Position numbers and translations under genes: made by a program. Below the pieces are notes generated by a model. The model made no database searches. It was not told where the DNA came from and saw nothing but the letters and a program-made list of their open reading frames with translations. A stretch of DNA of 64,000 nucleotides from an uncultured Alphaproteobacteria bacterium (GTDB lineage Bacteria; Pseudomonadota; Alphaproteobacteria; HIMB59; GCA-002718135). Numbering within the stretch: position 1 is the first letter of the stretch; each line of letters begins with the position of its first letter. The stretch is from the NCBI GenBank assembly GCA_902518705.1, contig CABYHW010000001.1, positions 114,270-178,269 on the forward strand, in the 5' to 3' direction. This document shows positions 3,307 through 61,870 of the stretch, piece by piece.

Positions 3307-4320
3307 TTACCAGCCTACTCTATCAATGATTTTCTGAGCTACAGGAGCAAGTTCTGCAAGTTTTTCAACAGGCAGTTTATCTTCTTTAAACTCGCCCCAT
3401 GATTTTAACTCATCAGTTAATTGCATATCTGGATTAACCGGATATTCATAGTTTATAGAACTGTACAGGGTTTGTGCTTTTGGCTGAGTTAGAAATTCAA
3501 GTAGTGCAATCGCATTGTCTTTATTTTTAGAGTACTTAATAACACCTCCACCAGCAACATTAATGTGATTCCCTCTGTCTTCTTGATTAGTAAAAACTAA
3601 CTCTATTGAGTTAGCCCACTCTTTTTGTTCTGGATTCTTTTCATTAAATTTCATTTTTCCAAAATAATAGGTATTCATTATAGCAATATCACACACACCT
3701 TCATAAATTGCTTTTGCTTGAGCTCTATCATTCCCCTCAGGTTTACGTGCTAAATTTGCAACAACGCCTGCAGCCCATTCTTCAGCAATAACTTCTCCAT
3801 TTGCAGCAATTATTGAAGCTAATAGTGATCTATTGTAGTCATGGCTACCAGGTCTTGTACAAATTTTACCTTTCCATTTTGGATCAGATAAATCTTCTAT
3901 TCTTTTAATTGAGTCTGTAGATAATCTTTCTTTTGATATTGCAACAATTCTAGCTCTCTTTGAAAGTGCAAACCATTTATTATTACTGTCTCTTAAATGA
4001 TTTGGAATATTCATATTTAAAATATCTGAGTTAATTGGTTGCAAAATATCCTTTTCAACAAATTGGTTTAACCTTGCTATATCAACTGTTAATACCAAGT
4101 CAGCAGGTGTATCTTCACCTTCAGCTAGAACTCTTTCTAGTAATCCTTTTTTTGCATGTAAAACATTTACCTTTATGCCAGTCGATTTTGTAAATTCCTC
4201 AAAGAATGGATCTATTAAAATTGGCTGCCTGTAAGAATAAACATTAACCTCTTTGGCAAACAAGTTTAGTGAAATGGTGGATGCAATTAGTATTAATAGT
4301 AATCTAAAAATAATTTTCAT
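3307..4320 (-). CDS. fbpA: Periplasmic Fe(III)-binding protein (FbpA/SfuA/AfuA family)
   Basis: Signal peptide MKIIFRLLLILIASTISLNLFA. Length and sequence are typical of the ferric SBP family (VNVYSYRQP..., ...TRPGSHDYNRSL...). First gene of the fbpA-fbpB pair. Confidence 0.8.
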   Translation of the reverse strand: MKIIFRLLLILIASTISLNLFAKEVNVYSYRQPILIDPFFEEFTKSTGIKVNVLHAKKGLLERVLAEGEDTPADLVLTVDIARLNQFVEKDILQPINSDILNMNIPNHLRDSNNKWFALSKRARIVAISKERLSTDSIKRIEDLSDPKWKGKICTRPGSHDYNRSLLASIIAANGEVIAEEWAAGVVANLARKPEGNDRAQAKAIYEGVCDIAIMNTYYFGKMKFNEKNPEQKEWANSIELVFTNQEDRGNHINVAGGGVIKYSKNKDNAIALLEFLTQPKAQTLYSSINYEYPVNPDMQLTDELKSWGEFKEDKLPVEKLAELAPVAQKIIDRVGW

Positions 4321-4337
4321 ATAACATTCCTTTTTTT

Positions 4338-4360
4338 GTGGAGATAATAAATATCTCCAC
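4338..4360 (-). promoter_or_regulatory. Perfect 9-bp-arm palindrome/hairpin in the fbpA 5' leader
   Basis: GTGGAGATA-ATAAA-TATCTCCAC. On the mRNA strand it lies about 14 nt upstream of the ATG and is followed by AAAAAAAGGAA (SD). It contains one GATAAT hexamer. Confidence 0.5.
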
Positions 4361-4479
4361 GTTCTATGATTAAGAATCTTATTAAAAATTATCAGAATAC
4401 GAATGTAGATCTATATAAATTTTTTTTTAATATCAGTGTTGTTAAAATTCATAAAATTAGATTTATTCTAAATTTAAAG

Positions 4480-4508
4480 TTAAAAATGTTGGGGCCACTT
4501 TGGGCCCC
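4480..4508 (-). terminator. Putative intrinsic terminator of ibpA
   Basis: On the minus strand, GGGGCC-CAAAGT-GGCCCC (4491..4508) sits 9 nt after the ibpA stop. It is followed by AACAUUUUUAAC, so the U-tract is imperfect. Confidence 0.5.
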
Positions 4509-4517
4509 TATCCTAAA

Positions 4518-4955
4518 CTACTTTATTGAAATTAGTCTAGCTTTTTTTTCTTCTGGAATAATTCTCTCCAAATCAATCGCTAAAAGTCCATTCTTCAATT
4601 CAGCATCTTTAACTTTGATGTCTTCTGAAATTGTGAACGATCTTTCAAACTGTCTTGTTGAGATTCCTTTATGGATTACACCATTACCATTTTCATTAAC
4701 CACTTTTTCTTTAGGTTTATTTCTAACAGTTAGGTTGTTTTCTTTTAATTCAATCTCAATATCTTCTTTACTATATCCAGCGAGAGCAACTTCAATTTTA
4801 TAGTTATGCTCATCAACTCTATGAATATTGTAAGGTGGATAATTTGTATTGTATCTTTCCGTAGACTCCAACATTCTATCAAATTCATCAAAAATTGAGT
4901 CAAATCCAACAGAGAATGGTCTAAGAGAATTCCAAACGGATAGGTTTCTAGTCAT
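4518..4955 (-). CDS. ibpA: Small heat-shock protein, Hsp20/alpha-crystallin family
   Basis: MTRNLSVWNSLRPFSVGFDSIFDEFDRM...YPPYNI...YKIEVALAGYSKEDIEIE... is a classic IbpA-like sequence. I use the ATG at 4955, preceded by AAAGGAG, rather than the upstream ORF start at 4997. Confidence 0.9.
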   Translation of the reverse strand: MTRNLSVWNSLRPFSVGFDSIFDEFDRMLESTERYNTNYPPYNIHRVDEHNYKIEVALAGYSKEDIEIELKENNLTVRNKPKEKVVNENGNGVIHKGISTRQFERSFTISEDIKVKDAELKNGLLAIDLERIIPEEKKARLISIK

Positions 4956-19416: not shown

Positions 19417-20418
19417 ATGAGTAACATGCAAGGCAAGTTTCCAAGTACAAGACTTAGACGTAATAGAATGAAAGAATTTTCTCGTCGTTTAGTTGCTGAA
19501 AATACACTTAGTGTTAATGATTTAATCTTGCCTCTATTTGTATGCGAGGGAAACAAGGTTGATGATCCTATTAATTCGATGCCTGGTATAAGCAGATACT
19601 CTATTGATAAACTTTTAAGTGAAGTAGAAAAAGCTGTTAATTTTAATATTCCTGCTATTGCAATTTTTCCGCAAATTGAAAGTGGCCTTAAAAATTCTGA
19701 GGGAAGTTTAGCTGTAGATGAAAACAATTTGGTGTGCAGATCAATTAAAAGTATCAAAAAAGATTTTCCAAATATTGGTATTGTATGTGATGTTGCGTTA
19801 GATCCTTTTACGGACCATGGGCATGATGGTTTGGTTATAAATGATAAAATAGATAATGATAAAACTTTGGAGGTTCTGGAACAACAAGCCCTAATCCAAG
19901 CTAATGCTGGTTGTGATGTAATCGCCCCATCAGATATGATGGATGGAAGAGTGGGAAGAATAAGAACTGCATTAGATTCAAACAATTTAGCAGATACCCT
20001 TATTCTCTCTTATGCTGCAAAATATGCTTCAGGTTTTTATGGACCTTTTAGAGATGCTATAGGTTCTGGTTCTAATTTGGGTAAAGATGGTAAATTAACA
20101 TATCAAATGGATCCATCAAATAGTGATGAAGCTATTAGAGAAGTTGGATTAGATATAAGTGAAGGCGCAGATATGGTAATGGTTAAACCTGGTATGCCTT
20201 ATCTTGATATTATTTCTAGAATTAAATCAGAATTTAAAGTTCCAACTTTTGCCTACCAAGTATCTGGTGAATATTCGATGATAAAAGAGTCAATTAATAA
20301 AGGTTGGCTTAATGAAAAAGTTGTAATGGAATCTCTTTTATCTTTTAAAAGAGCTGGGGCAAATGGTATACTGACTTACTTTGCACTAGAAGCTGCTGAA
20401 AAATTAAAAAATGAATAA
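19417..20418 (+). CDS. hemB: Porphobilinogen synthase (ALA dehydratase)
   Basis: RLRRNR..., [23 protein letters not shown] motifs. Confidence 0.95.
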
Positions 20419-21939: not shown

Positions 21940-24075
<2,136 letters not shown>

Positions 24076-42129: not shown

Positions 42130-42708
42130 GTGAAAGAAATTTTTTTTTTTTCAAATAATATTAATAAAATAAATGAGATTCAGAATATTGTTAGTAAGAA
42201 AAAAATAAAGGTTTTATCAATTTTGGATTTTGAATTTTTAAAGGAGCCAGTAGAAAGCGGTATTAGTTTTTCAGAAAACGCAAAAATTAAATCATATTTT
42301 GGTTATAGAAAAACTTTGATTCCAACTTTTGCTGATGATTCTGGTATTTGTATAGAAGCATTGAATTGGAAACCAGGTATACATTCAAAAAAATTTTTAA
42401 ATGATTTTAAGAAAATGGATGATTGTTTTAATTATATAATTAATAAAGCTAATATGAAGTCTAAATATAAAGCTTTTTTTAAAACATCTATATGCTTAAC
42501 TTTAAAAGACTCTTATCATATAGTGTTTGAGGGCAGAGTTAATGGTACAATTTCAGAAAAACCTTTAGGAAAAAATGGGTTTGGTTATGATCCTATTTTT
42601 ATACCTTCTGAAAATAATAAAACTTATGGTGAAATGACCAAAAAAGAAAAAAATTCGTTCAGTCATAGGTCTATAGCTGTTAATAAGCTTTTAGATTTTT
42701 TAAACTAA
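42130..42708 (+). CDS. rdgB: dITP/XTP pyrophosphatase (Ham1/RdgB family)
   Basis: GTG start 1 nt after the rph stop. ...FADDSGICIEALNWKPGIHS..., GFGYDPIF, SHR. Confidence 0.85.
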   Translation: MKEIFFFSNNINKINEIQNIVSKKKIKVLSILDFEFLKEPVESGISFSENAKIKSYFGYRKTLIPTFADDSGICIEALNWKPGIHSKKFLNDFKKMDDCFNYIINKANMKSKYKAFFKTSICLTLKDSYHIVFEGRVNGTISEKPLGKNGFGYDPIFIPSENNKTYGEMTKKEKNSFSHRSIAVNKLLDFLN

Positions 42709-44033
42709 TCAATTTTAATTGCTGTTCCTTTAGAAATTTTTAAAATATCCAAGTCCCTTTCAACAATGTTATTTTTAAAATAAAATTTTCCATCAATTCC
42801 ATTAAAATTTATTTTTGAGTCATTTAAAGTCAATAAAAATTCATTAAATGAATAATTTTTTGTAAATACAAAATTTAACAAACCAATTAAATCATAATTT
42901 AAAGTAGAGATCCTTAAAATGTTCTCATTATATATTTCTTCGTACTGCTTGATTAAAAAAATTCTTTTATTTTTTTCAATACCTGGAAATATTGTTCCTT
43001 GTAATGATGGTTCTGTAAAAAAATTTTCATCATCAATTACACCAGTTCCTAAAAACTGAACTAAATTAGGGTCAATATCGTAATAAGTTAAAAGTGGTGC
43101 AACTTTTAAAAGGTTAAGACCATAATCAGCAATAAGAATATGTGTGAAATCATAATCACTAGTTGTTTTAAATTTTTGAAGTTTTTTATATCTCTCTTTT
43201 GATTTTAAGTCTGTTTTTGTAGATAATATTTTTTTTTGTCTTTCTAATTCATATTTTCTAAGATTATATTTTCCAAGTTCTTTTATGCTTTCTCTTACAT
43301 TAGATAGATCATTTTTATAAGAAGATCTGTTAATTAGTATTGTCTCACTTTTATTTAATATATCGTCAATAATTGAATTAATCATAAATCCATAATTATT
43401 TTCTGGAAATAAAAATGCTAATCTAGTTTCAGTATCTAAAAAATTAAATAGTTCTTCAAGTTCGTTCTGTGGGAAAAAATTAAATAAATAAATACAATCG
43501 TCTGCCAAATTTCGATTAGAAGCGAATGAAAAAAATATTAATTTTTTATCACAGAACTTTTTTACTAATTGAGTATCATCATTTTTAATTGGACCAATAT
43601 ATATTTTACCAGGTTTATAAGAACTGGAAATAATTTTTTCTAATTCAAAATTGTTGCTATAATATTTAAAGTCAAAATTAATGTTGTTAAAGTTTTTATT
43701 GTAAACAGCTAATTCTAGAACATTTGTAAACTGATTTATAATTTTTTTATTTTCGTTTATGGGAAAAAGAAAAGTAATATTTCTATTTAATGAAATATCA
43801 TTCAAGGTATCGCTCTTACTAACAATATTAGAGTCCAATTCCTGTTTAATTATATTTTTATCTAAAAATTTAGGAGTAGAAGTTTGTTTTCTTTCTATAT
43901 CATCATTTTTATAAGATTGTTTAGACAAATTTGCTGGAGAACAAGAAATTAACGATATAATAAGATGAATAATGAAAAAAAATAGTAGTGGTTTATTTAT
44001 TGTAGCTACACCAATAGGAAATTTAAAAGACAT
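42705..44033 (-). CDS. LpoA/LppC-like lipoprotein (periplasmic-binding-protein-type fold; putative PBP activator)
   Basis: Lipobox ISLISC. A long Asn/Lys-rich body ends in a type-1 PBP-like C-terminal part. It is divergent from rsmI and near a DolP-like BON gene, as with yraL/yraM/yraP in E. coli. The start is set at ATG 44033; the track ORF extends to 44126. Confidence 0.45.
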   Translation of the reverse strand: MSFKFPIGVATINKPLLFFFIIHLIISLISCSPANLSKQSYKNDDIERKQTSTPKFLDKNIIKQELDSNIVSKSDTLNDISLNRNITFLFPINENKKIINQFTNVLELAVYNKNFNNINFDFKYYSNNFELEKIISSSYKPGKIYIGPIKNDDTQLVKKFCDKKLIFFSFASNRNLADDCIYLFNFFPQNELEELFNFLDTETRLAFLFPENNYGFMINSIIDDILNKSETILINRSSYKNDLSNVRESIKELGKYNLRKYELERQKKILSTKTDLKSKERYKKLQKFKTTSDYDFTHILIADYGLNLLKVAPLLTYYDIDPNLVQFLGTGVIDDENFFTEPSLQGTIFPGIEKNKRIFLIKQYEEIYNENILRISTLNYDLIGLLNFVFTKNYSFNEFLLTLNDSKINFNGIDGKFYFKNNIVERDLDILKISKGTAIKID

Positions 44034-44823
44034 ATCTGAAAGAGCAAAAGAAACAATTTTTGAGGCAGATTTGGTTATTTGTGAAAACCCTAAACATTCT
44101 CTAAAACTACTTAACAAATTAGGCATTAAAAAGAAATTATTATCATTACACGATTATAACGAAACACTAGTTATAAATAAAATATCAAAAGAACTATCAA
44201 ATAAAAAAATAGTATTAATATCAGATGCTGGATCTCCTCTAATTTCAGATCCAGGTTTTAAACTTGTAAAATACTGTATTGAGAATAATATTTATACTAC
44301 TTCAATCCCTGGGTCTTGTTCAATAATACCAGCTTTGCAACTATCTGGTATTCCAATAAATGAATTTTCTTACTTAGGATTCTTCCCAAAATCTAAAAAT
44401 AAAATGAAATTATTTATTAATGAAATTAAAAATTCAATTAGGACCTCAGTTTTTTTTGTTTCATCAAATAAATTGATTGATTGTTTAAATTTTATTCAGA
44501 GTGAAGATTTAGTTAGAACAATAAGTATCTCCAAAGAACTTACAAAAATTAATGAAAACGTTTTAAGAGGTAGTTATGAACAAATCATTAGTCAAATAAC
44601 AAATCAACAAATTTTAATGAAAGGAGAGTTTGTTGTTGTTGTTGAAGGAAAATCTATAAAAAAAACAAAAAATATAAATTTGTCTATTTATAACGATACA
44701 ATTACAGTGTTACTTTCAAAATTTTCTTTGACCGAAGTCGTCGAAATAGTGCATAAATTGATTGGAATAAATAAAAATAAAATTTATAAATGGGTTCTAA
44801 AATTAAAAAAATACCAAAATTAA
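43972..44823 (+). CDS. rsmI: 16S rRNA (cytidine1402-2'-O)-methyltransferase
   Basis: GLFIVATPIGNLKDISERA..., CENPKHS..LL, SDAGSP.ISDPG. Confidence 0.9.
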   Translation: MKKNSSGLFIVATPIGNLKDISERAKETIFEADLVICENPKHSLKLLNKLGIKKKLLSLHDYNETLVINKISKELSNKKIVLISDAGSPLISDPGFKLVKYCIENNIYTTSIPGSCSIIPALQLSGIPINEFSYLGFFPKSKNKMKLFINEIKNSIRTSVFFVSSNKLIDCLNFIQSEDLVRTISISKELTKINENVLRGSYEQIISQITNQQILMKGEFVVVVEGKSIKKTKNINLSIYNDTITVLLSKFSLTEVVEIVHKLIGINKNKIYKWVLKLKKYQN

Positions 44824-57471: not shown

Positions 57472-58253
57472 TAAATTTTTTTATAAATTGTGTTAAGCAA
57501 TTTTTTGTCTACAGATGGGCTTTTACCAAACCAAATTTTAAAACACGGCCTGGCCTGTTCAATCAACATTGATATTCCATAAATCTTTTTATTTTTTGGA
57601 AACTGTTTAAGAAATGAGGTATTTTTTGGGCTATAAACAATGTCGCTTACAATTGTAGATTTTGTAATACGTTTTAGGTTTTTTTTTAATATAGGGTTTA
57701 TTGGTGTGGTATTAATTATTAAAAAAACTCCCTCAAGATGTCTTTCAAGATCACTATATGTTTTTGTATACTCAGTCTTGTTTGAATACTTAATTTTTTT
57801 CTTAGATCTGTTGAAAATTAAAATATCCTTAAACCCCCTTTTCTTTAAAACATAGTGAATGGCGTGTGATGCGCCCCCATATCCTAGAATAATAACTTTT
57901 CTGCTTTTGGTTTTTTTTATATTTGGTAGGGTTTTGTAATATCCTGTCCAATCAGTATTGGTTCCATTTATAATTTTTTTATTTGTTACACAATTTACTG
58001 CACCAATTTTTTTTGCATGGGCGTCTATTTTATTAAGGTGTTTGATAATTTTGTTTTTGAATGGAATAGTTACATTTAAGCCAAGTGTATCTTTTTTTTC
58101 CAAAATTTCTTTTATTTTTTTATGAAAGTTTTTTTCTGTAAGTTCTAAGTATCCATAAGTTGCTTTAATGTTATATTTTTTAAACCAATAGTTAAATATT
58201 GTTGGTGAAAGACTTTTAGATGCACTATTCCCAACTACGTAAAGTTTTTTCAT
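57471..58253 (-). CDS. aroE: Shikimate dehydrogenase
   Basis: SKSLSPTIFNYWFKKYNI, LNVTIPFK, GAVN, ILGYGGASHAI (NADP-binding). Confidence 0.8.
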   Translation of the reverse strand: MKKLYVVGNSASKSLSPTIFNYWFKKYNIKATYGYLELTEKNFHKKIKEILEKKDTLGLNVTIPFKNKIIKHLNKIDAHAKKIGAVNCVTNKKIINGTNTDWTGYYKTLPNIKKTKSRKVIILGYGGASHAIHYVLKKRGFKDILIFNRSKKKIKYSNKTEYTKTYSDLERHLEGVFLIINTTPINPILKKNLKRITKSTIVSDIVYSPKNTSFLKQFPKNKKIYGISMLIEQARPCFKIWFGKSPSVDKKLLNTIYKKI

Positions 58254-58840
58254 TTTTTTGAATATAAATAATCTAGCAAATTAAATAAAGGTAATCCCAT
58301 CACATTAAAATAATCTCCTTTTATGCTCTCAATGATATTAGGCCCCAAACTTTCTATTTGATAACATCCTACAGAGCTTAGTATTTGTTTGCCTGTTTTT
58401 TTTAAGTATGTTTTTATTTCACCATTATTAAGCTTTCTTATTTTAACATGGGTTTTTTCGTAACTTTCCCAAATTTTGGAGCCATTCAAACAAATAGTTA
58501 AGCCCGATACTATTAAGTGTGTCTTTCCTGATAGAGATTTGATTTTCTTTTGGGCTTTCTCAATAGAATTTACTTTATCTAAAATTTTTCCATTATGATA
58601 AATGACTGTATCACAGCCTAAAACAATCTTATTGGCATACAATTTTTGTCTACTTACACTTCTTGCTTTTTCATAAGAAAGTTTTTTTGCAAAAATCTCA
58701 GGCCTTGTTTTTCTGTTGATGGTTTTTTTAATATCTTCTTCGTTGCAGTTTGGAACTTTTTGTTTGAAATTTAATCCTGCATTTTTCAATATTTTATACC
58801 TAGATTTGCTTGAGCTAGCTAATATAAATTGTTGGTGCAT
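58250..58840 (-). CDS. maf: Maf-like nucleoside triphosphate pyrophosphatase
   Basis: FILASSSKSRYKIL..., LGCDTV, GCYQIE. I prefer the Met at 58840 (MHQQFILASSS) to the ORF-track start at 58873. Confidence 0.85.
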   Translation of the reverse strand: MHQQFILASSSKSRYKILKNAGLNFKQKVPNCNEEDIKKTINRKTRPEIFAKKLSYEKARSVSRQKLYANKIVLGCDTVIYHNGKILDKVNSIEKAQKKIKSLSGKTHLIVSGLTICLNGSKIWESYEKTHVKIRKLNNGEIKTYLKKTGKQILSSVGCYQIESLGPNIIESIKGDYFNVMGLPLFNLLDYLYSKK

Positions 58841-59259
58841 AAGTGTGTTAATAAAAGTTATAGTTATAAACACTATTAAATATAATTTGAATTTAAGAAA
58901 TAGTTCTTTTGTTTCAAAAATGTGTTGTTAACAACTTAATAACTTGTCTGAACATTATAAACTGAGTGTTAATATATTTTTTATACAAAATTAATAACAA
59001 GTTATTAAAAATTTATTGCATTACAAATTATTTAAAAATAGTATTCTTTTTTGATTATTCTTTAAATTAACATGTTTGTTTAGGTTTTTACTCATATGTT
59101 GGTAAATAAAGAATGATACAATAATAAAGCAATAATTAAGCCTTTTAACCTTACAACTAATACTACAATTAAATATATATTATATATTATTATTATTTTG
59201 ACATTAACTTCAATTTTGATTATTAAAATAACCCACTTCTAAACTACCTCAACTACATT

Positions 59260-60519
59260 ATGAATTTACAGGAACTAAAAGGAAAAGAACCTCAAGAGCT
59301 TTTGAAACAGGCAGACAAACTTGGTATAGAAAACCCGTCATCTCTTAGAAAACAAGATTTAATGTTTGCAATTTTAAAAACAATTGCTGAGGAAGGTGAG
59401 ATTATTACCGGTTTAGGGGTTATTGAAATTATGCAAGATGGCTTTGGTTTCTTAAGATCATCAGAATCAAACTATCTTCCTGGTCCAGATGATATTTACG
59501 TTTCTCCATCTCAAATTAAAAAATTTAGTATAAGAACTGGAGATAGTGTCGAAGGTGAAATACGATCTCCAAAACAAGGAGAAAGATATTTTGCTATTAC
59601 TAAAATTAATAAAATTAATGGGCAGGAAACAGATTCTGTTAAAAATAGAGTAAATTTTGAGGACTTAACTCCATTGTATCCTGATTCAAGATTTAGATTA
59701 GAACAAGAAAAACCAATGCCTGATTTGACTGAGAGAATTATAGATATTATTGCACCTCTAGGAAAAGGACAAAGACAATTAATTGTTGCACAACCATTCA
59801 CCGGAAAAACGATAATTATGCAAAAAATAGCTAATGCTATCACTGCTAACAGTCCTGATACAAAGCTAATAGTTTTGCTAATTGATGAAAGACCAGAAGA
59901 AGTTACAGATATGCAAAGATCTCTAAAAAAGGGTGAAGTAATCAGCTCCACATTTGATGAGCCCGCATCAAGACATGTTCAGGTTGCTGAAATGGTTATT
60001 GAAAAGGCTAAAAGGCTGGTTGAATATAAAAATGATGTAGTTATTCTTCTTGACTCAATAACTAGACTTGGAAGAGCTTATAATACAGTTGTTCCTTCTA
60101 GTGGAAAGGTATTAACAGGAGGAGTTGATGCAAACGCTCTACAAAGACCTAAAAGGTTTTTTGGTGCTGCAAGAAATGTTGAAAAAGGCGGTTCTCTTAC
60201 AATTATTGCTACTGCTTTAATAGATACAGGTAGTAGAATGGATGAGGTAATATTTGAAGAATTTAAAGGTACAGGTAACAGTGAAATGGTACTAGATAGA
60301 AAACTCAGCCAAAAAAGAACATATCCTGCATTTGATATTGGTAAATCTGGAACAAGAAAAGAAGAATTATTGCTTGATAAAGATGAACTTGGAAAAATCT
60401 TCATTTTAAGGAAAATACTAGCTCCAATGGGAAGCACAGAAGCTATGGAGTTTTTGTTAGATAAAATGAAAAATACAAAAACAAACAACGATTTCTTCCA
60501 AAGCATGGGAACTAAATAA
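59260..60519 (+). CDS. rho: Transcription termination factor Rho
   Basis: [15 protein letters not shown]..., GFGFLR, P-loop, 419 aa. Confidence 0.97.
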
Positions 60520-60583: not shown

Positions 60584-61870
60584 ATGAAAGCTTCCAAAGA
60601 GACAATTTTTGCTCTCGCTACGCAAAAAGGTAAATCAGGTATAGCTGTTTTTAGGGTTTCAGGAAAAGGCTCTCACAAACTAATAAAATCAATATCGTCT
60701 AAAAAAAAATTCAAAACAAATTTTGCTACATTAAACAATTTATTAGATAGAAATAGTGTTATAGATCAAACGCTAACAACTTTTTTTAAATCACCAAAAA
60801 GCTACACAGGAGAGGATATGGTGGAAATATCTTGTCATGGAAGCATTTCAGTAATTAACAAAATAACTAAAACCCTATTAAAAAAACAGATCAGACTTGC
60901 TGAGCCTGGAGAGTTTACCAAAAGAGCATTAATGAATGACAAGCTTAGTGTTTTAGAAGCTGAAACAATTAATGATTTAGTTAATGCAGAAACTGAAAAT
61001 CAAAGAAAGATAGCTATTGGTAATTTAAGTGGAAATTTAGATAAATTAATTATTGAAATATCAAATAAACAAAAAAAACTTCTAGCAGATATTGAGGCAA
61101 TAATTGATTTTGCTGACGAAGACCTCCCTAAAGAAATATATAAAAGCATAAGAGAACAAAATAAGAACATATATAAAAAAATTGAAAATATTATTAAAAG
61201 GTCGTCTTTATCCAAACAAATACATAACGGTTTTACAATAACTATTATTGGAAAGCCGAATACAGGCAAGTCTTCCTTTATAAACTATATAAATAATAAG
61301 GAGGTTTCTATAGTTACTAATATACCTGGAACTACAACAGATTTAGTAAGCTCCACGTTAGATATACAAGGAGATAAATACACATTTATTGATACAGCCG
61401 GAATAAGAAAATATAAGAATTTAATAGAAAAAATAGGTATTGAAAGATCCTTAGAGAGCGCTGAAAAGTCTGATTTAAATATAGTTTTTCTCAAAAACAA
61501 TGAAAAGAAAAAATATAGTAAAATCAAATCAAAAATATTTGTTAAATCAAAATATGATACAAATAAAAAGAAAATTAGTGGGGTACATAGTATTTCATCA
61601 GTATCTGGTTATGGAATTGAGTCTCTTATTAAAAAAATATTTTCAAAATTAAAGAAAAAACCAATTTCTGGACCAGTCTTTTCACGTGAAAGACATATGG
61701 AAAGCCTAAAGAAATCACTTGTATTGCTTAAAAGTTTAGATTTAAAAGAAATAGATATTGCTGCTGAAAATGTTAGAAGATCTATTATGTATATTGATGG
61801 AATTAATCAAAAATTTGATATTGAGAAAATTTTAGATATAATATTTAGTGATTTTTGTATAGGTAAGTAA
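60584..61870 (+). CDS. mnmE: tRNA modification GTPase MnmE
   Basis: TIFALAT..G.SGIAVFRVSG, G-domain GKPNTGKSS / DTAGIR, C-terminal FCIGK. Confidence 0.9.
   Translation: MKASKETIFALATQKGKSGIAVFRVSGKGSHKLIKSISSKKKFKTNFATLNNLLDRNSVIDQTLTTFFKSPKSYTGEDMVEISCHGSISVINKITKTLLKKQIRLAEPGEFTKRALMNDKLSVLEAETINDLVNAETENQRKIAIGNLSGNLDKLIIEISNKQKKLLADIEAIIDFADEDLPKEIYKSIREQNKNIYKKIENIIKRSSLSKQIHNGFTITIIGKPNTGKSSFINYINNKEVSIVTNIPGTTTDLVSSTLDIQGDKYTFIDTAGIRKYKNLIEKIGIERSLESAEKSDLNIVFLKNNEKKKYSKIKSKIFVKSKYDTNKKKISGVHSISSVSGYGIESLIKKIFSKLKKKPISGPVFSRERHMESLKKSLVLLKSLDLKEIDIAAENVRRSIMYIDGINQKFDIEKILDIIFSDFCIGK

Follow-up and report, generated by a model that had tools for sequence, protein, structure and literature searches.

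A predicted chromosomal replication origin in the maf-rho spacer of an uncultured SAR11-related marine alphaproteobacterium

Where does chromosome replication begin in an uncultured, SAR11-related marine alphaproteobacterium with a GC content of 31%? The question is raised by the 419-bp gap between maf and rho, in which GC is 0.18, vs 0.307 across the window (the whole 64-kb stretch of DNA that was analysed). An earlier note, made from the letters of the sequence, had picked out this gap as the largest non-coding stretch of the window, and rightly so: the runner-up measures 209 bp, and an apparently larger gap of 663 bp (44127-44789) was rejected because a gene of the tetrapyrrole-methylase family (PF00590) covers it. 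We read the spacer as the predicted chromosomal oriC, with a probability of roughly 0.8; the computed support consists of its position, conservation, motif enrichment, core homology, duplex instability and a compositional polarity switch. Most likely, as far as sequence comparison can tell, it is orthologous to the origin that other Alphaproteobacteria have next to hemE. An origin at this place is expected biology, with one unexplained oddity, the strand composition.

The flanks were identified by protein family matches, with Maf, AroE, CoaE, DnaQ and a Tim44-like protein encoded on the minus strand and Rho, MnmE and MnmG on the plus strand. In L081, a strain 98-99.8% identical to the present one, rsmG, parA and parB come after rho-mnmE-mnmG. 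These matches agree with the two clusters previously named from the reading frames (maf-aroE-coaE-dnaQ and rho-mnmE-mnmG-rsmG), the rsmG member being seen in L081. The maf start was placed at the ATG at 58840, since the NCBIfam alignment begins at residue 12 of a longer GTG open reading frame; an ATG stands at the equivalent position in 11 relatives. The description of the 45.4-58.9 kb region as mostly minus-strand stands only in part, as it passes over a 5.2-kb plus-strand block at 49.4-54.6 kb that contains hslV, hslU, a PAP2-family gene, a PMT_2-family gene and a DUF3108 gene. Outside the species, the nearest proteins to Rho and LeuS come from Pelagibacteraceae and other alphaproteobacteria (65-74% identity).

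The same two clusters, tim44-dnaQ-coaE-aroE-maf and rho-mnmE-mnmG, lie on either side of this position in almost every one of 80 alphaproteobacterial loci, so that the synteny described in the earlier note was correct. In SAR11, Brevundimonas and others the order is maf-DUF299, spacer, hemE-hemH-hemJ-rho; the intervening genes in SAR11 and Brevundimonas are DUF299/RP001 (PF03618), hemE (PF01208), hemH and UPF0093, and Bartonella, SAR11 and Brevundimonas all have DUF299 and/or hemE-hemH-UPF0093 between the two flanks. By tblastn with SAR11 queries, DUF299, HemE, HemH and HemJ gave 0 matches in the window. Thus, four genes that SAR11 and Brevundimonas carry at this site are missing here, the flanks are directly juxtaposed as had been noted, and the predicted origin now abuts maf and the rho promoter. 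Since the usual flanking genes are no longer there, the functional unit can be narrowed to about 360 bp. A search of the window with an approximate E. coli fragment of dnaA found no dnaA, although a very divergent dnaA could escape this query. A parS-like site lies inside mnmE and parA-parB lie 6-8 kb from the gap; we counted them as markers of an origin domain. The 12-bp palindromic core of the parS-like site, TTTCACGTGAAA, is retained in L081 and L093, and canonical parS with 0-1 mismatch occurs in the same neighbourhood of the SAR11, L028 and Bartonella loci.

Alignment across relatives shows that the spacer is under constraint. In 15 of 15 metagenomic relatives, counting those in which the starts of both maf and rho could be placed, the two genes are adjacent and the spacer measures 415-422 bp, although their Maf is only 50-95% identical to that of the window. 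Spacer identity is 0.73-0.91 where that of the 4-fold degenerate sites of maf and rho is 0.43-0.85. For example, it is 0.73 vs 0.43-0.44 in L093, 0.82 vs 0.53 in L090 and 0.91 vs 0.57-0.85 in L083. This alignment, which had been proposed as a check on the origin idea, places the spacer alike in all these relatives and contains conserved box-like blocks (Table 1).

Table 1. Positions of the genes and predicted elements at the maf-rho locus, numbered from the first letter of the window.
Feature	Position	Strand	Remarks
maf	58250..58840	-	NCBIfam TIGR00172, 134.6 bits; heads leftward cluster, followed by aroE, coaE, dnaQ
Whole maf-rho spacer	58841..59259		Candidate oriC ~58841-59199, then rho promoter and 5' UTR
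Box 1, candidate DnaA-box variant TTATTAACA	58846..58854	-	Exact TTATNAACA; 6 nt from maf start codon
Box 2, candidate DnaA-box variant TTATAAACA	58864..58872	+	Exact match; inverted relative to box 1, 9 nt between
TTAACAACA	58923-58931	-	Overlaps palindrome GTTGTTAACAAC
Perfect 12-bp palindrome GTTGTTAACAAC	58924-58935		Has TTGTTAACA on both strands
TTAATAACTTGT	58936..58947	+	Left arm of perfect 12-nt inverted repeat, partner 58997-59008
Box-like ATATTAACA (plus strand TGTTAATAT)	58967..58975	-	One mismatch to TTATNAACA; TGTTAAT conserved
TTAATAAC-AA-GTTATTAA	58991..59008		Abutting inverted box-like 9-mers TTAATAACA (+) and TTAATAACT (-)
Box-like AAATTAACA	59064..59072	+	Weak call, 2 mismatches to variant; TTAAcaT block conserved
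Box-like TTACCAACA (plus strand TGTTGGTAA)	59097..59105	-	Two mismatches to TTATCCACA
AATAATTAAG	59131..59140	+	Homolog of upstream tandem box (alignment A2); conserved block 59134-59140
CTTTTAACC	59142..59150	+	Degenerate triplet-proximal box (alignment A2)
Triplet array TTA CAA CTA ATA CTA CAA TTA	59151..59171	+	Candidate DnaA-trios
33-nt A/T-only run, rich in TA steps	59167..59199		Candidate DNA unwinding element
rho promoter and 5' UTR (predicted)	59198..59259	+	-35 TTGACA 59198-59203, 17-nt spacer, TATTAA 59221-59226
rho	59260..60519	+	NCBIfam TIGR00767, 674 bits; heads rightward cluster, followed by mnmE, mnmG
parS-like site CTTTTCACGTGAAAGA	61678..61693		Inside mnmE, 2.4 kb from gap

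The stretch 59131-59199 aligns with the core that immediately precedes hemE in 16 other alphaproteobacteria (alignment A2, 17 lineages). Its shared layout comprises two tandem DnaA-type boxes, an array of CTA/CAA/ATA triplets and an AT-rich run. The upstream box reads TAATCCCCG/A in other alphaproteobacteria and TAATTAAC or TAATCACC in SAR11. The triplet-proximal box CTTTTAACC, which is at least three mismatches from either consensus and three from the variant described below, aligns with TTATTCACA in SAR11, CTTCACC in L080 and TTTCCACC in Brevundimonas and others, while TAATTCACT occupies this position in L099. The triplet array (bottom strand TAA TTG TAG TAT TAG TTG TAA) is conserved upstream of hemE across alphaproteobacteria; L080 has a copy of CTTACAACTAATACTACAAT with 3 substitutions in 20 nt, directly upstream of hemE and in the same orientation. 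The A/T-only run that follows had been proposed as a possible unwinding element. By length it is tied third among 40 runs of at least 20 nt in the window, and no other 30-bp duplex in the whole 64 kb is as unstable as 59167-59196; its place 3' of the triplet array agrees with the other origins in alignment A2. A spacer profile searched with nhmmer against 1.27 Mb (2.5 Mb on both strands) matched only L080 (E = 0.014) and SAR11 L065 (E = 2), both in origin-position spacers. The reverse search of the window, with the SAR11 spacer profile or single SAR11 spacers, gave no matches, and homology between the SAR11 spacers and the present one is confined at the sequence level to short blocks.

We found no 9-mer in the gap within one mismatch of the DnaA consensus TTATCCACA, as had been read by eye before. 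The best are five sites with two mismatches; sites of up to two mismatches average 1.9 per 419 bp across the window, with as many as 7 in other places, so the cluster is unremarkable by the E. coli consensus. TTATNCACA has 0 exact copies across the whole 64 kb, and its occurrence within one mismatch was rejected as a signal of the gap (P = 0.15 vs shuffles). By contrast, the gap has a cluster of a variant, TTATNAACA, with 11 sites at no more than one mismatch. Dinucleotide shuffles give 3.7 +/- 1.9 (P about 0.001), no other 419-bp window has more than 5, and two of the 15 exact sites in the 64 kb lie in the gap. In six SAR11 spacers at the origin position, TTATNAACA occurs at 7.95/kb vs 0.16/kb outside (~49-fold enriched) and TTATNCACA at 3.06/kb vs 0.022/kb; the TTATNAACA motif was defined after inspection of the present spacer and its SAR11 enrichment is independent of this, yet the SAR11 spacers are very AT-rich too. 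The recurring TTAATAAC, which the earlier note had put forward as the candidate initiator site, belongs to this predicted variant (TTATNAACA / TTAATAACA, consensus C6 changed to A).

The variant sits where sister lineages carry TTATTCACA or TTATTCACG, and orthologous box sites vary at box position 5 only or switch between C and A at position 6. For example, box 1 reads TTAT[A/C/G/T]AACA in a clade of ~50% Maf identity, with position 5 alone varying, and exact TTATNAACA stands at the same end of three of the six SAR11 spacers (L041, L049, L065), two more having the one-off TGTTAATNN. Box 2, part of a block that 8 or more of 9 divergent relatives retain, is replaced by TTATTAACA in L095 and by TTATTCACG in L101, L103 and L109. 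Also kept in at least 8 of 9 relatives are the TTAACA core of the palindrome region 58923..58935 and the segment 58991-59000, and TTAATAACA fills the triplet-proximal box position in Fonsibacter L040. The region of 59097..59105 has ATGTTGGTAAAT in common with SAR11 L065 in the nhmmer alignment. As to the symmetries described earlier, the perfect 12-bp palindrome was confirmed, while the supposed 18-bp palindrome at 58991..59008 is actually an imperfect one, an 8-bp inverted repeat around a 2-bp centre; the reverse complementarity of 58936..58946 and 58998..59008 is real and extends one base further, to 12 nt.

The final ~65 bp before rho are predicted to be a promoter and not part of the origin. 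Here, TTATTTTGACATT is kept in at least 8 of 9 relatives, the TATTAA is followed by a C-rich, G-poor leader of ~30 nt, and in SAR11 the ~65-bp hemJ-rho spacer contains a comparable promoter (TTGAAT/TTGAAA) and a C-rich leader ahead of rho. Our promoter scan did not return the rho promoter because its -10 hexamer ends in A, and the sigma-70/terminator scan of the region found sigma-70-like matches at chance level (7 vs 5.8 expected). Located directly upstream of the -35 element, the A/T run could also act as an UP element. No TTAA-N7-TTAA was detected in the gap (10 in the window vs 15 expected), in line with the previous failure to see a TTAA-N7-TTAAC CtrA site, and the gap also has no GANTC and no GATC. 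No tRNA and no tmRNA were found.

Strand composition is where the locus departs from expectation. Over the 81 kb covered, composition at third codon positions has the gap as its axis of mirror symmetry (Fisher P <= 0.005 for the GC comparisons). In genes that point toward the gap the GC3 skew is +0.198 and +0.159 on the two sides and the AT3 skew -0.061 and -0.051, so that they are G3- and T3-rich on both sides, while the GC3 skew of genes pointing away is about -0.01. The sign of the GC component is the one that a terminus would show, opposite to that of a classical origin. Bartonella, Cohaesibacter and a Rhodobacteraceae genome show the classical sign at the same site, opposite to the present lineage; L028, the other lineage in which maf and rho are adjacent, shares the inverted pattern, and in its AT3 component the present locus agrees in sign with the surroundings of the SAR11 origin spacers. 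Raw cumulative GC skew in the window merely follows the coding strand, with the G-C minimum at 49.3 kb. The skew check proposed in the earlier note, as run over this stretch, shows a third-position polarity switch at the gap, but the sign of its GC component is not the classical one and the raw minimum lies elsewhere. Of 85 genes (59 kb on the left and 22 kb on the right), 53 point away from the gap and 32 toward it (P = 0.03), although beyond parB on the right side 10 point away and 11 toward, with no bias away from the gap.

Could the spacer be only a divergent regulatory region for maf-aroE-coaE-dnaQ and rho, its conserved inverted repeats being bound by a dimeric transcription factor or by DnaA in the role of repressor, with the true origin elsewhere, for example near dnaA? 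We consider this unlikely. The perfect palindrome, the 8+2+8 repeat and the 12-nt inverted repeats do resemble dimer operators, two conserved boxes 6-32 nt from the maf start are placed like operators, and a conserved TTGACA with 17-nt spacing to TATTAA, similar to that of SAR11 rho, stands 60 bp upstream of rho; moreover, the gap lacks canonical DnaA boxes, and no dnaA was found in the window. However, promoters need about 60-80 bp per gene, whereas conservation and fixed length span all 419 bp, and sigma-70-like matches do not exceed chance. The core 59131-59199 precedes a different gene, hemE, in 16 other lineages and is therefore not specific to a rho promoter, and a regulatory function would leave the silent-site polarity switch at the gap unexplained. 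A structured RNA, such as a long rho leader or attenuator, a riboswitch or a small RNA, seems very improbable. E. coli rho is autoregulated through its leader, the conserved non-coding region upstream of rho is long, and its last 60 nt are C-rich and G-poor, resembling a Rho-utilisation site; but the conserved promoter allows a leader of only about 30 nt, Rfam gave no match at the gathering threshold or at E <= 1, the two strands fold no better than shuffles (z = -0.77 and +0.88), and conservation falls on short AT-rich DNA motifs, present in both orientations, and not on segments that pair as RNA.

The inverted GC3 sign raises the further alternative that the gap is the replication terminus or a point of fork convergence, the G+T excess toward it being the classical leading-strand signature. 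The G3- and T3-richness of genes that point toward the gap on both sides, absent from genes that point away, fits this, as do the opposite, classical sign at the syntenic site of three other alphaproteobacteria and the inverted pattern shared by L028. Against it, the parS-like site, parA-parB, rsmG, mnmG and mnmE, markers of an origin domain, all lie within 8 kb, genes diverge from the gap (53 vs 32), and the AT3 sign is that seen around SAR11 origin spacers. No dif-like site was found either, the best match to the 28-bp E. coli dif having 9 of 28 mismatches and not being near the gap, and the core is homologous to origin spacers with canonical DnaA boxes. We give a terminus very little credence and retain the origin as the preferred reading.

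If the spacer is the origin, DnaA would bind an array of AT-shifted boxes (TTATNAACA, TTAATAACA, TTGTTAACA) across 58846-59105 and also the degenerate tandem pair AATAATTAAG and CTTTTAACC at 59131-59150. From this pair, a DnaA oligomer could spread onto the triplets at 59151-59171 and melt the TA-rich run at 59167-59199, where the helicase would be loaded for bidirectional replication. Divergent transcription from a maf-side promoter and from the rho promoter (TTGACA at 59198) may aid opening, and maf-aroE-coaE-dnaQ may come under DnaA control through the two boxes 6-32 nt upstream of maf. DnaA binding, the melting site and any role of transcription are inferred. It is a tentative and on the whole rather doubtful extension that DnaA recognition has shifted to the AT-only TTATNAACA (C6 to A) in this lineage and part of SAR11, and that the silent-site signature is inverted, with a C/A-rich leading strand. 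If true, this would point to an unusual replication-associated mutational regime or, alternatively, to deamination of head-on genes dominating in very slowly replicating, streamlined cells.

Overall, the analysis places a predicted origin in an uncultured, streamlined marine lineage with almost no close relatives in public genome sets, and growth rates can be estimated from metagenomic coverage (peak-to-trough ratios) only when the position of the origin is known. Standard origin finders tuned to TTATCCACA would miss the candidate box variant TTATNAACA in SAR11-like genomes, and the inverted third-position GC asymmetry cautions against calling origin or terminus by the sign of skew alone in such genomes.

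Among known systems, the locus shares its neighbourhood with Cori of Caulobacter crescentus and the hemE-RP001 origin of Rickettsia prowazekii, lying as they do between the maf-aroE-coaE-dnaQ and rho-mnmE-mnmG-rsmG-parAB clusters; its immediate flanks are maf and rho rather than hemE and RP001/DUF299. Brevundimonas (Caulobacterales) and 15 other lineages have the same weak-box pair, CTA/CAA triplets and AT-rich stretch upstream of hemE. Caulobacter Cori carries CtrA and GANTC sites, whereas the present locus is without TTAA-N7-TTAA CtrA sites and GANTC sites as well as without hemE and DUF299/RP001, and the C-rich box cores TCCCC and TCCAC are replaced here by TTAAG and TTAAC.

The DUF299-hemE spacer of SAR11 (Pelagibacteraceae), likewise AT-rich, a predicted oriC and at the same syntenic site, has in common with the present one a left-end TGTTAATAA box, the variants TTATTAACA and TTAATAACA, ATGTTGGTAAAT, an AATAATTAA(C/G) block, the triplet array, the terminal AT-rich run and the sign of third-position AT skew. 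A search of the literature on SAR11 oriC found nothing specific. The SAR11 spacers are ~270 bp long and lie between DUF299 and hemE, whereas the present 419 bp include the rho promoter; three of six keep canonical TTATTCACA or TTATCCACA, unlike the present spacer, and for Rho and LeuS the identity with the SAR11 proteins is no more than about 65-72%.

The basal unwinding system (BUS) of Bacillus subtilis, predicted in most bacteria, consists of a DnaA-box pair, a spacer, DnaA-trios and an AT-rich region, and its rule calls for a DnaA box with up to 2 mismatches located 0-16 bp upstream of at least 3 NAN trios (PMC8287927). Order and orientation are the same here, with box, box, a short spacer, at least three central-A triplets on the bottom strand and the AT-rich region. 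CTA ATA CTA (bottom TAG TAT TAG) stands within the array of seven triplets and the AT run comes after it, though the best box in 59140-59155, TTAACCTTA, has 3 mismatches to TTATCCACA; boxes that conform to the rule occur in SAR11 L049, L063 and L065 (TTATTCACA) and in L099 (TAATTCACT). Since the (NAN)x3 pattern is of low specificity in 82%-AT sequence, with ~6 similar runs elsewhere in the window, the case rests on conservation and not on the pattern.

Loss of genes between the two clusters also has parallels in the DUF299-rho arrangement of Bartonella (L047, spacer 565 bp) and the maf-hemJ-rho arrangement of Rhodobacteraceae (L060, 371 bp), in which the spacer abuts rho or hemJ. Unlike the present locus, these keep DUF299 or hemJ, and a canonical TTATTCACA is still present in the spacer of Bartonella L047. 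Both arrangements have the classical GC3 skew away from the site, which sets them apart from the present lineage.

The 419-bp spacer between maf and rho (GC 18%) is the largest non-coding stretch of a gene-dense window with 30.7% GC, as the earlier note held. The runner-up measures 209 bp, in a ranking that corrects one overlapping call and counts a tetrapyrrole-methylase-family gene as coding. A 473-aa ORF shares 155 bp (as listed) with the start of that downstream gene. An NCBIfam scan of the leftward, minus-strand flank identified Maf, shikimate dehydrogenase, dephospho-CoA kinase, DnaQ and a Tim44-like protein. The mostly-minus run described left of the spacer does consist of minus-strand genes, but a 5.2-kb plus-strand block containing hslVU and three further genes breaks it. 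The sequence features reported within the spacer are all present, except that the reported "18-bp palindrome" proves to be an inverted repeat of 8+2+8. We likewise found no 9-mer within one mismatch of the DnaA-box consensus TTATCCACA and no TTAA-N7-TTAA in the spacer, nor any GANTC site.

Features of the maf-rho region and of other loci in the window
Feature	Position	Strand or direction	Remark
hemB (ALAD)	19417-20418		
Two-domain peroxidase-family (KatG-like) gene	21940-24075		
473-aa ORF	42705-44126	minus	no Pfam match at E <= 1e-5
Tetrapyrrole-methylase-family gene	43972-44823		PF00590
maf	58250-58840	leftward	NCBIfam scan
maf-rho spacer	58841-59259		
Exact TTATNAACA	58846	minus	
Exact TTATNAACA	58864	plus	
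CTTACAACTAATACTACAAT	59150-59169		common to profile matches
Triplet array	59151-59171		candidate DnaA-trios
TTATTTTGACATT	59193-59205		conserved, with TATTAA 17 nt downstream
rho	59260-60519	rightward	NCBIfam scan; then MnmE, MnmG
parS-like CTTTTCACGTGAAAGA	61678-61693		within mnmE coding sequence

Contig CACIXC010000003.1 (assembly GCA_902590495.1) encodes a Rho identical to that of the window. This sister strain is 97.4-99.8% identical to the window across the shared 7 kb and 100% identical in the spacer, and carries rsmG-parA-parB further along beyond rho-mnmE. Its locus (L081) also contains, at 3466-4949 between rho and mnmE, a 1484-bp insertion absent from the window (60533/60536); this strain-level indel sits 1.3 kb away from the putative origin, and the encoded 473-aa FG-GAP_3 protein is unrelated to the window's ORF of equal length. 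Outside the species, the nearest Rho proteins (73-74% identity) belong to assorted alphaproteobacteria and the nearest LeuS proteins reach 64-69%, the sole organism-named match being a Pelagibacteraceae bacterium; marine data sets are the source of every metagenomic relative. We treat the source organism as an uncultured marine alphaproteobacterium, SAR11-related yet outside SAR11. One 42%-GC contig labelled "Patescibacteria group bacterium" (JBIKLN010000001.1) encodes a Rho that shares 72-73% identity with the window's alphaproteobacterial Rho, and the bin label looks doubtful.

Among 80 alphaproteobacterial loci fetched with Rho, both gene clusters bracket the site in almost all, 0.26-4.5 kb apart, which bears out the earlier note's statement that maf-aroE-coaE-dnaQ and rho-mnmE-mnmG-rsmG flank the hemE/RP001 locus. 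In six Pelagibacteraceae loci and Brevundimonas, a leftward DUF299/RP001-family gene (PF03618) is followed by a 260-280 bp spacer, a rightward hemE (PF01208)-hemH-UPF0093/hemJ run and rho. None of DUF299, hemE, hemH and hemJ occurs in the window, and the flanks abut directly, as had been proposed. Other reduced arrangements exist: in Bartonella florencae (L047, 7428-7991) DUF299 faces rho directly over a 565-bp spacer, with hemE, hemH and hemJ missing from the interval; a Rhodobacteraceae genome has hemJ-rho next to maf; and another AT-rich single-cell genome (L028) also joins maf to rho, with a 234-bp spacer. The Bartonella spacer holds one TTATTCACA box and has three near-canonical parS sites no more than 5 kb away. 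The window does encode hemB and a KatG-like protein; the missing heme-pathway genes may therefore have moved elsewhere in the genome instead of being lost.

In 16 metagenomic contigs (Maf 50-95% identical) rho lies directly upstream of maf, and the spacer measures 415-422 bp in all 15 with both start codons placed. Its identity to the window far exceeds that of 4-fold degenerate sites in the flanking genes: 0.91 versus 0.57 (rho) and 0.85 (maf) in L083, 0.82 versus 0.53 in L090, and 0.73 versus 0.43-0.44 in L093. This alignment, suggested earlier as a check, reveals conserved blocks over the entire spacer, beyond its gene-proximal ends, nearly all of them with box-like cores; the spacer is under selection. 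A structured RNA within it was not supported.

Almost every conserved block includes a TTAACA, TAAACA or TAACAA core. Sites within one mismatch of the AT-shifted box variant TTATNAACA number 11 in the gap versus 3.7 +/- 1.9 in dinucleotide shuffles (P about 0.001) and at most 5 in every other 419-bp window; the motif was picked after looking at the data, and independent tests were therefore needed. The canonical pattern TTATNCACA is about 140-fold enriched in six SAR11 spacers (3.06/kb vs 0.022/kb), which marks them as DnaA-box clusters. There TTATNAACA is 49-fold enriched (7.95/kb vs 0.16/kb), and is the sole form in three of the six. In the most distant maf-rho clade, the box lying 6 nt away from maf takes the forms TTATAAACA, TTATCAACA, TTATGAACA and TTATTAACA, with position 5 alone varying, and the second box reads TTATTCACG, TTATTAACA or TTATAAACA; position 5 is the one known to be free in DnaA boxes. 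From the SAR11 enrichment and this position-5-only variation we conclude that TTATNAACA-type sites are predicted DnaA boxes in which the base at position 6 has shifted from C to A. The motif singled out earlier as recurring, TTAATAAC, falls within this family, since TTAATAACA occupies the triplet-proximal box slot in Fonsibacter. Canonical TTATNCACA is absent from both strands of the 64 kb (4.2 +/- 1.9 in dinucleotide shuffles), which may reflect avoidance or simply C-to-A drift.

A spacer-profile search over alphaproteobacterial loci totalling 1.27 Mb (2.5 Mb with both strands counted) matched two places only, L080 (E = 0.014) and the SAR11 locus L065 (E = 2), both origin-position spacers in the correct orientation. 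The shared element is CTTACAACTAATACTACAAT; L080, from a 50%-GC genome, has CTTACAACTACCACTACTAT immediately upstream of hemE. Inspecting the 130 bp that precede hemE in 40 loci, and aligning 17 of them, revealed a common layout of upstream box, second box, CTA/CAA/ATA triplet run and AT-rich stretch. The upstream box is TAATCCCCG/A in most loci, TAATTAAC or TAATCACC in SAR11 and AATAATTAAG in the window; the second is TTTCCACC, CTTCACC or TTATTCACA elsewhere and CTTTTAACC in the window. In the window a 33-nt A/T run follows the triplets, and its first 30 bp form the least stable duplex of the 64 kb. Because TTATTTTGACATT and TATTAA are conserved and SAR11 rho has an analogous promoter with a short C-rich leader inside its 65-bp hemJ-rho spacer, the final ~65 bp of the gap are a predicted rho promoter; the origin proper would span about 58841-59199.

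The cumulative GC-skew minimum within the window falls at 49.3 kb, not at the gap; raw skew tracks the coding strand and thus decides nothing about the origin. We extended the right side to 22 kb with a sister-strain contig (L162, 1-22107) found via its LeuS, and separated gene orientation from position in third-position skews. On the left, GC3 and AT3 skews are -0.010 and +0.019 in genes pointing away from the gap (n=43) versus +0.198 and -0.061 in those pointing toward it (n=21); on the right they are -0.016 and +0.056 (n=10) versus +0.159 and -0.051 (n=11). In pooled Fisher tests the GC differences had P = 6e-9 and 0.002, the AT differences P = 3e-6 and 6e-5. The 4-fold sites repeat this pattern; at codon positions 1 and 2, only GC skew matches in direction, weakly, and AT skew does not agree. 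The switch in polarity, located at the gap or very close to it, is genuine, as a replication landmark predicts, but its GC sign is opposite to the classical origin sign on both sides. The classical sign is seen at the syntenic site in Bartonella, Cohaesibacter and a Rhodobacteraceae genome, whereas L028 shares the inversion and SAR11 has little GC effect with the window's AT sign. The inverted sign may stem from an unusual replication-linked mutation bias, or the exposed coding strand of head-on genes may undergo more deamination.

A replication terminus would explain the inverted sign, yet is unlikely: a parS-like palindrome lies 2.4 kb off with parAB nearby, 53 of 85 genes point away from the gap, a search for a dif-like site found none, and the spacer is homologous to box-bearing origin spacers. 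A purely regulatory spacer, in turn, would leave unaccounted for the conservation along the full 419 bp, the homology to the cores that precede hemE, and the polarity switch. Synteny, conservation and core homology instead favour the origin proposed in the earlier note, and we consider the gap most likely to be oriC (probability about 0.8). The parS-like site itself has a 12-bp palindromic core with degenerate outer bases; it is kept in L081 and reads TTTTTCACGTGAAATT in L093.

The proposed oriC is most likely an ortholog of the hemE-linked alphaproteobacterial origin, cut to its core and joined to the rho promoter, with predicted AT-shifted DnaA boxes and without CtrA or GANTC sites. Two points are worth following: the TTATNAACA box variant, which SAR11 shares, and the GC asymmetry at silent sites with its inverted sign. 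The basal unwinding system was described for Bacillus and is widely predicted; its DnaA-trios are runs of three or more NAN triplets no farther than 16 bp from a box (PMC8287927). The window differs in that its proximal box has 3 mismatches, and the triplet pattern by itself is frequent in AT-rich DNA; the reading of the array as putative DnaA-trios therefore rests on conservation. The box-box-triplet-AT core matches that system in both order and orientation.
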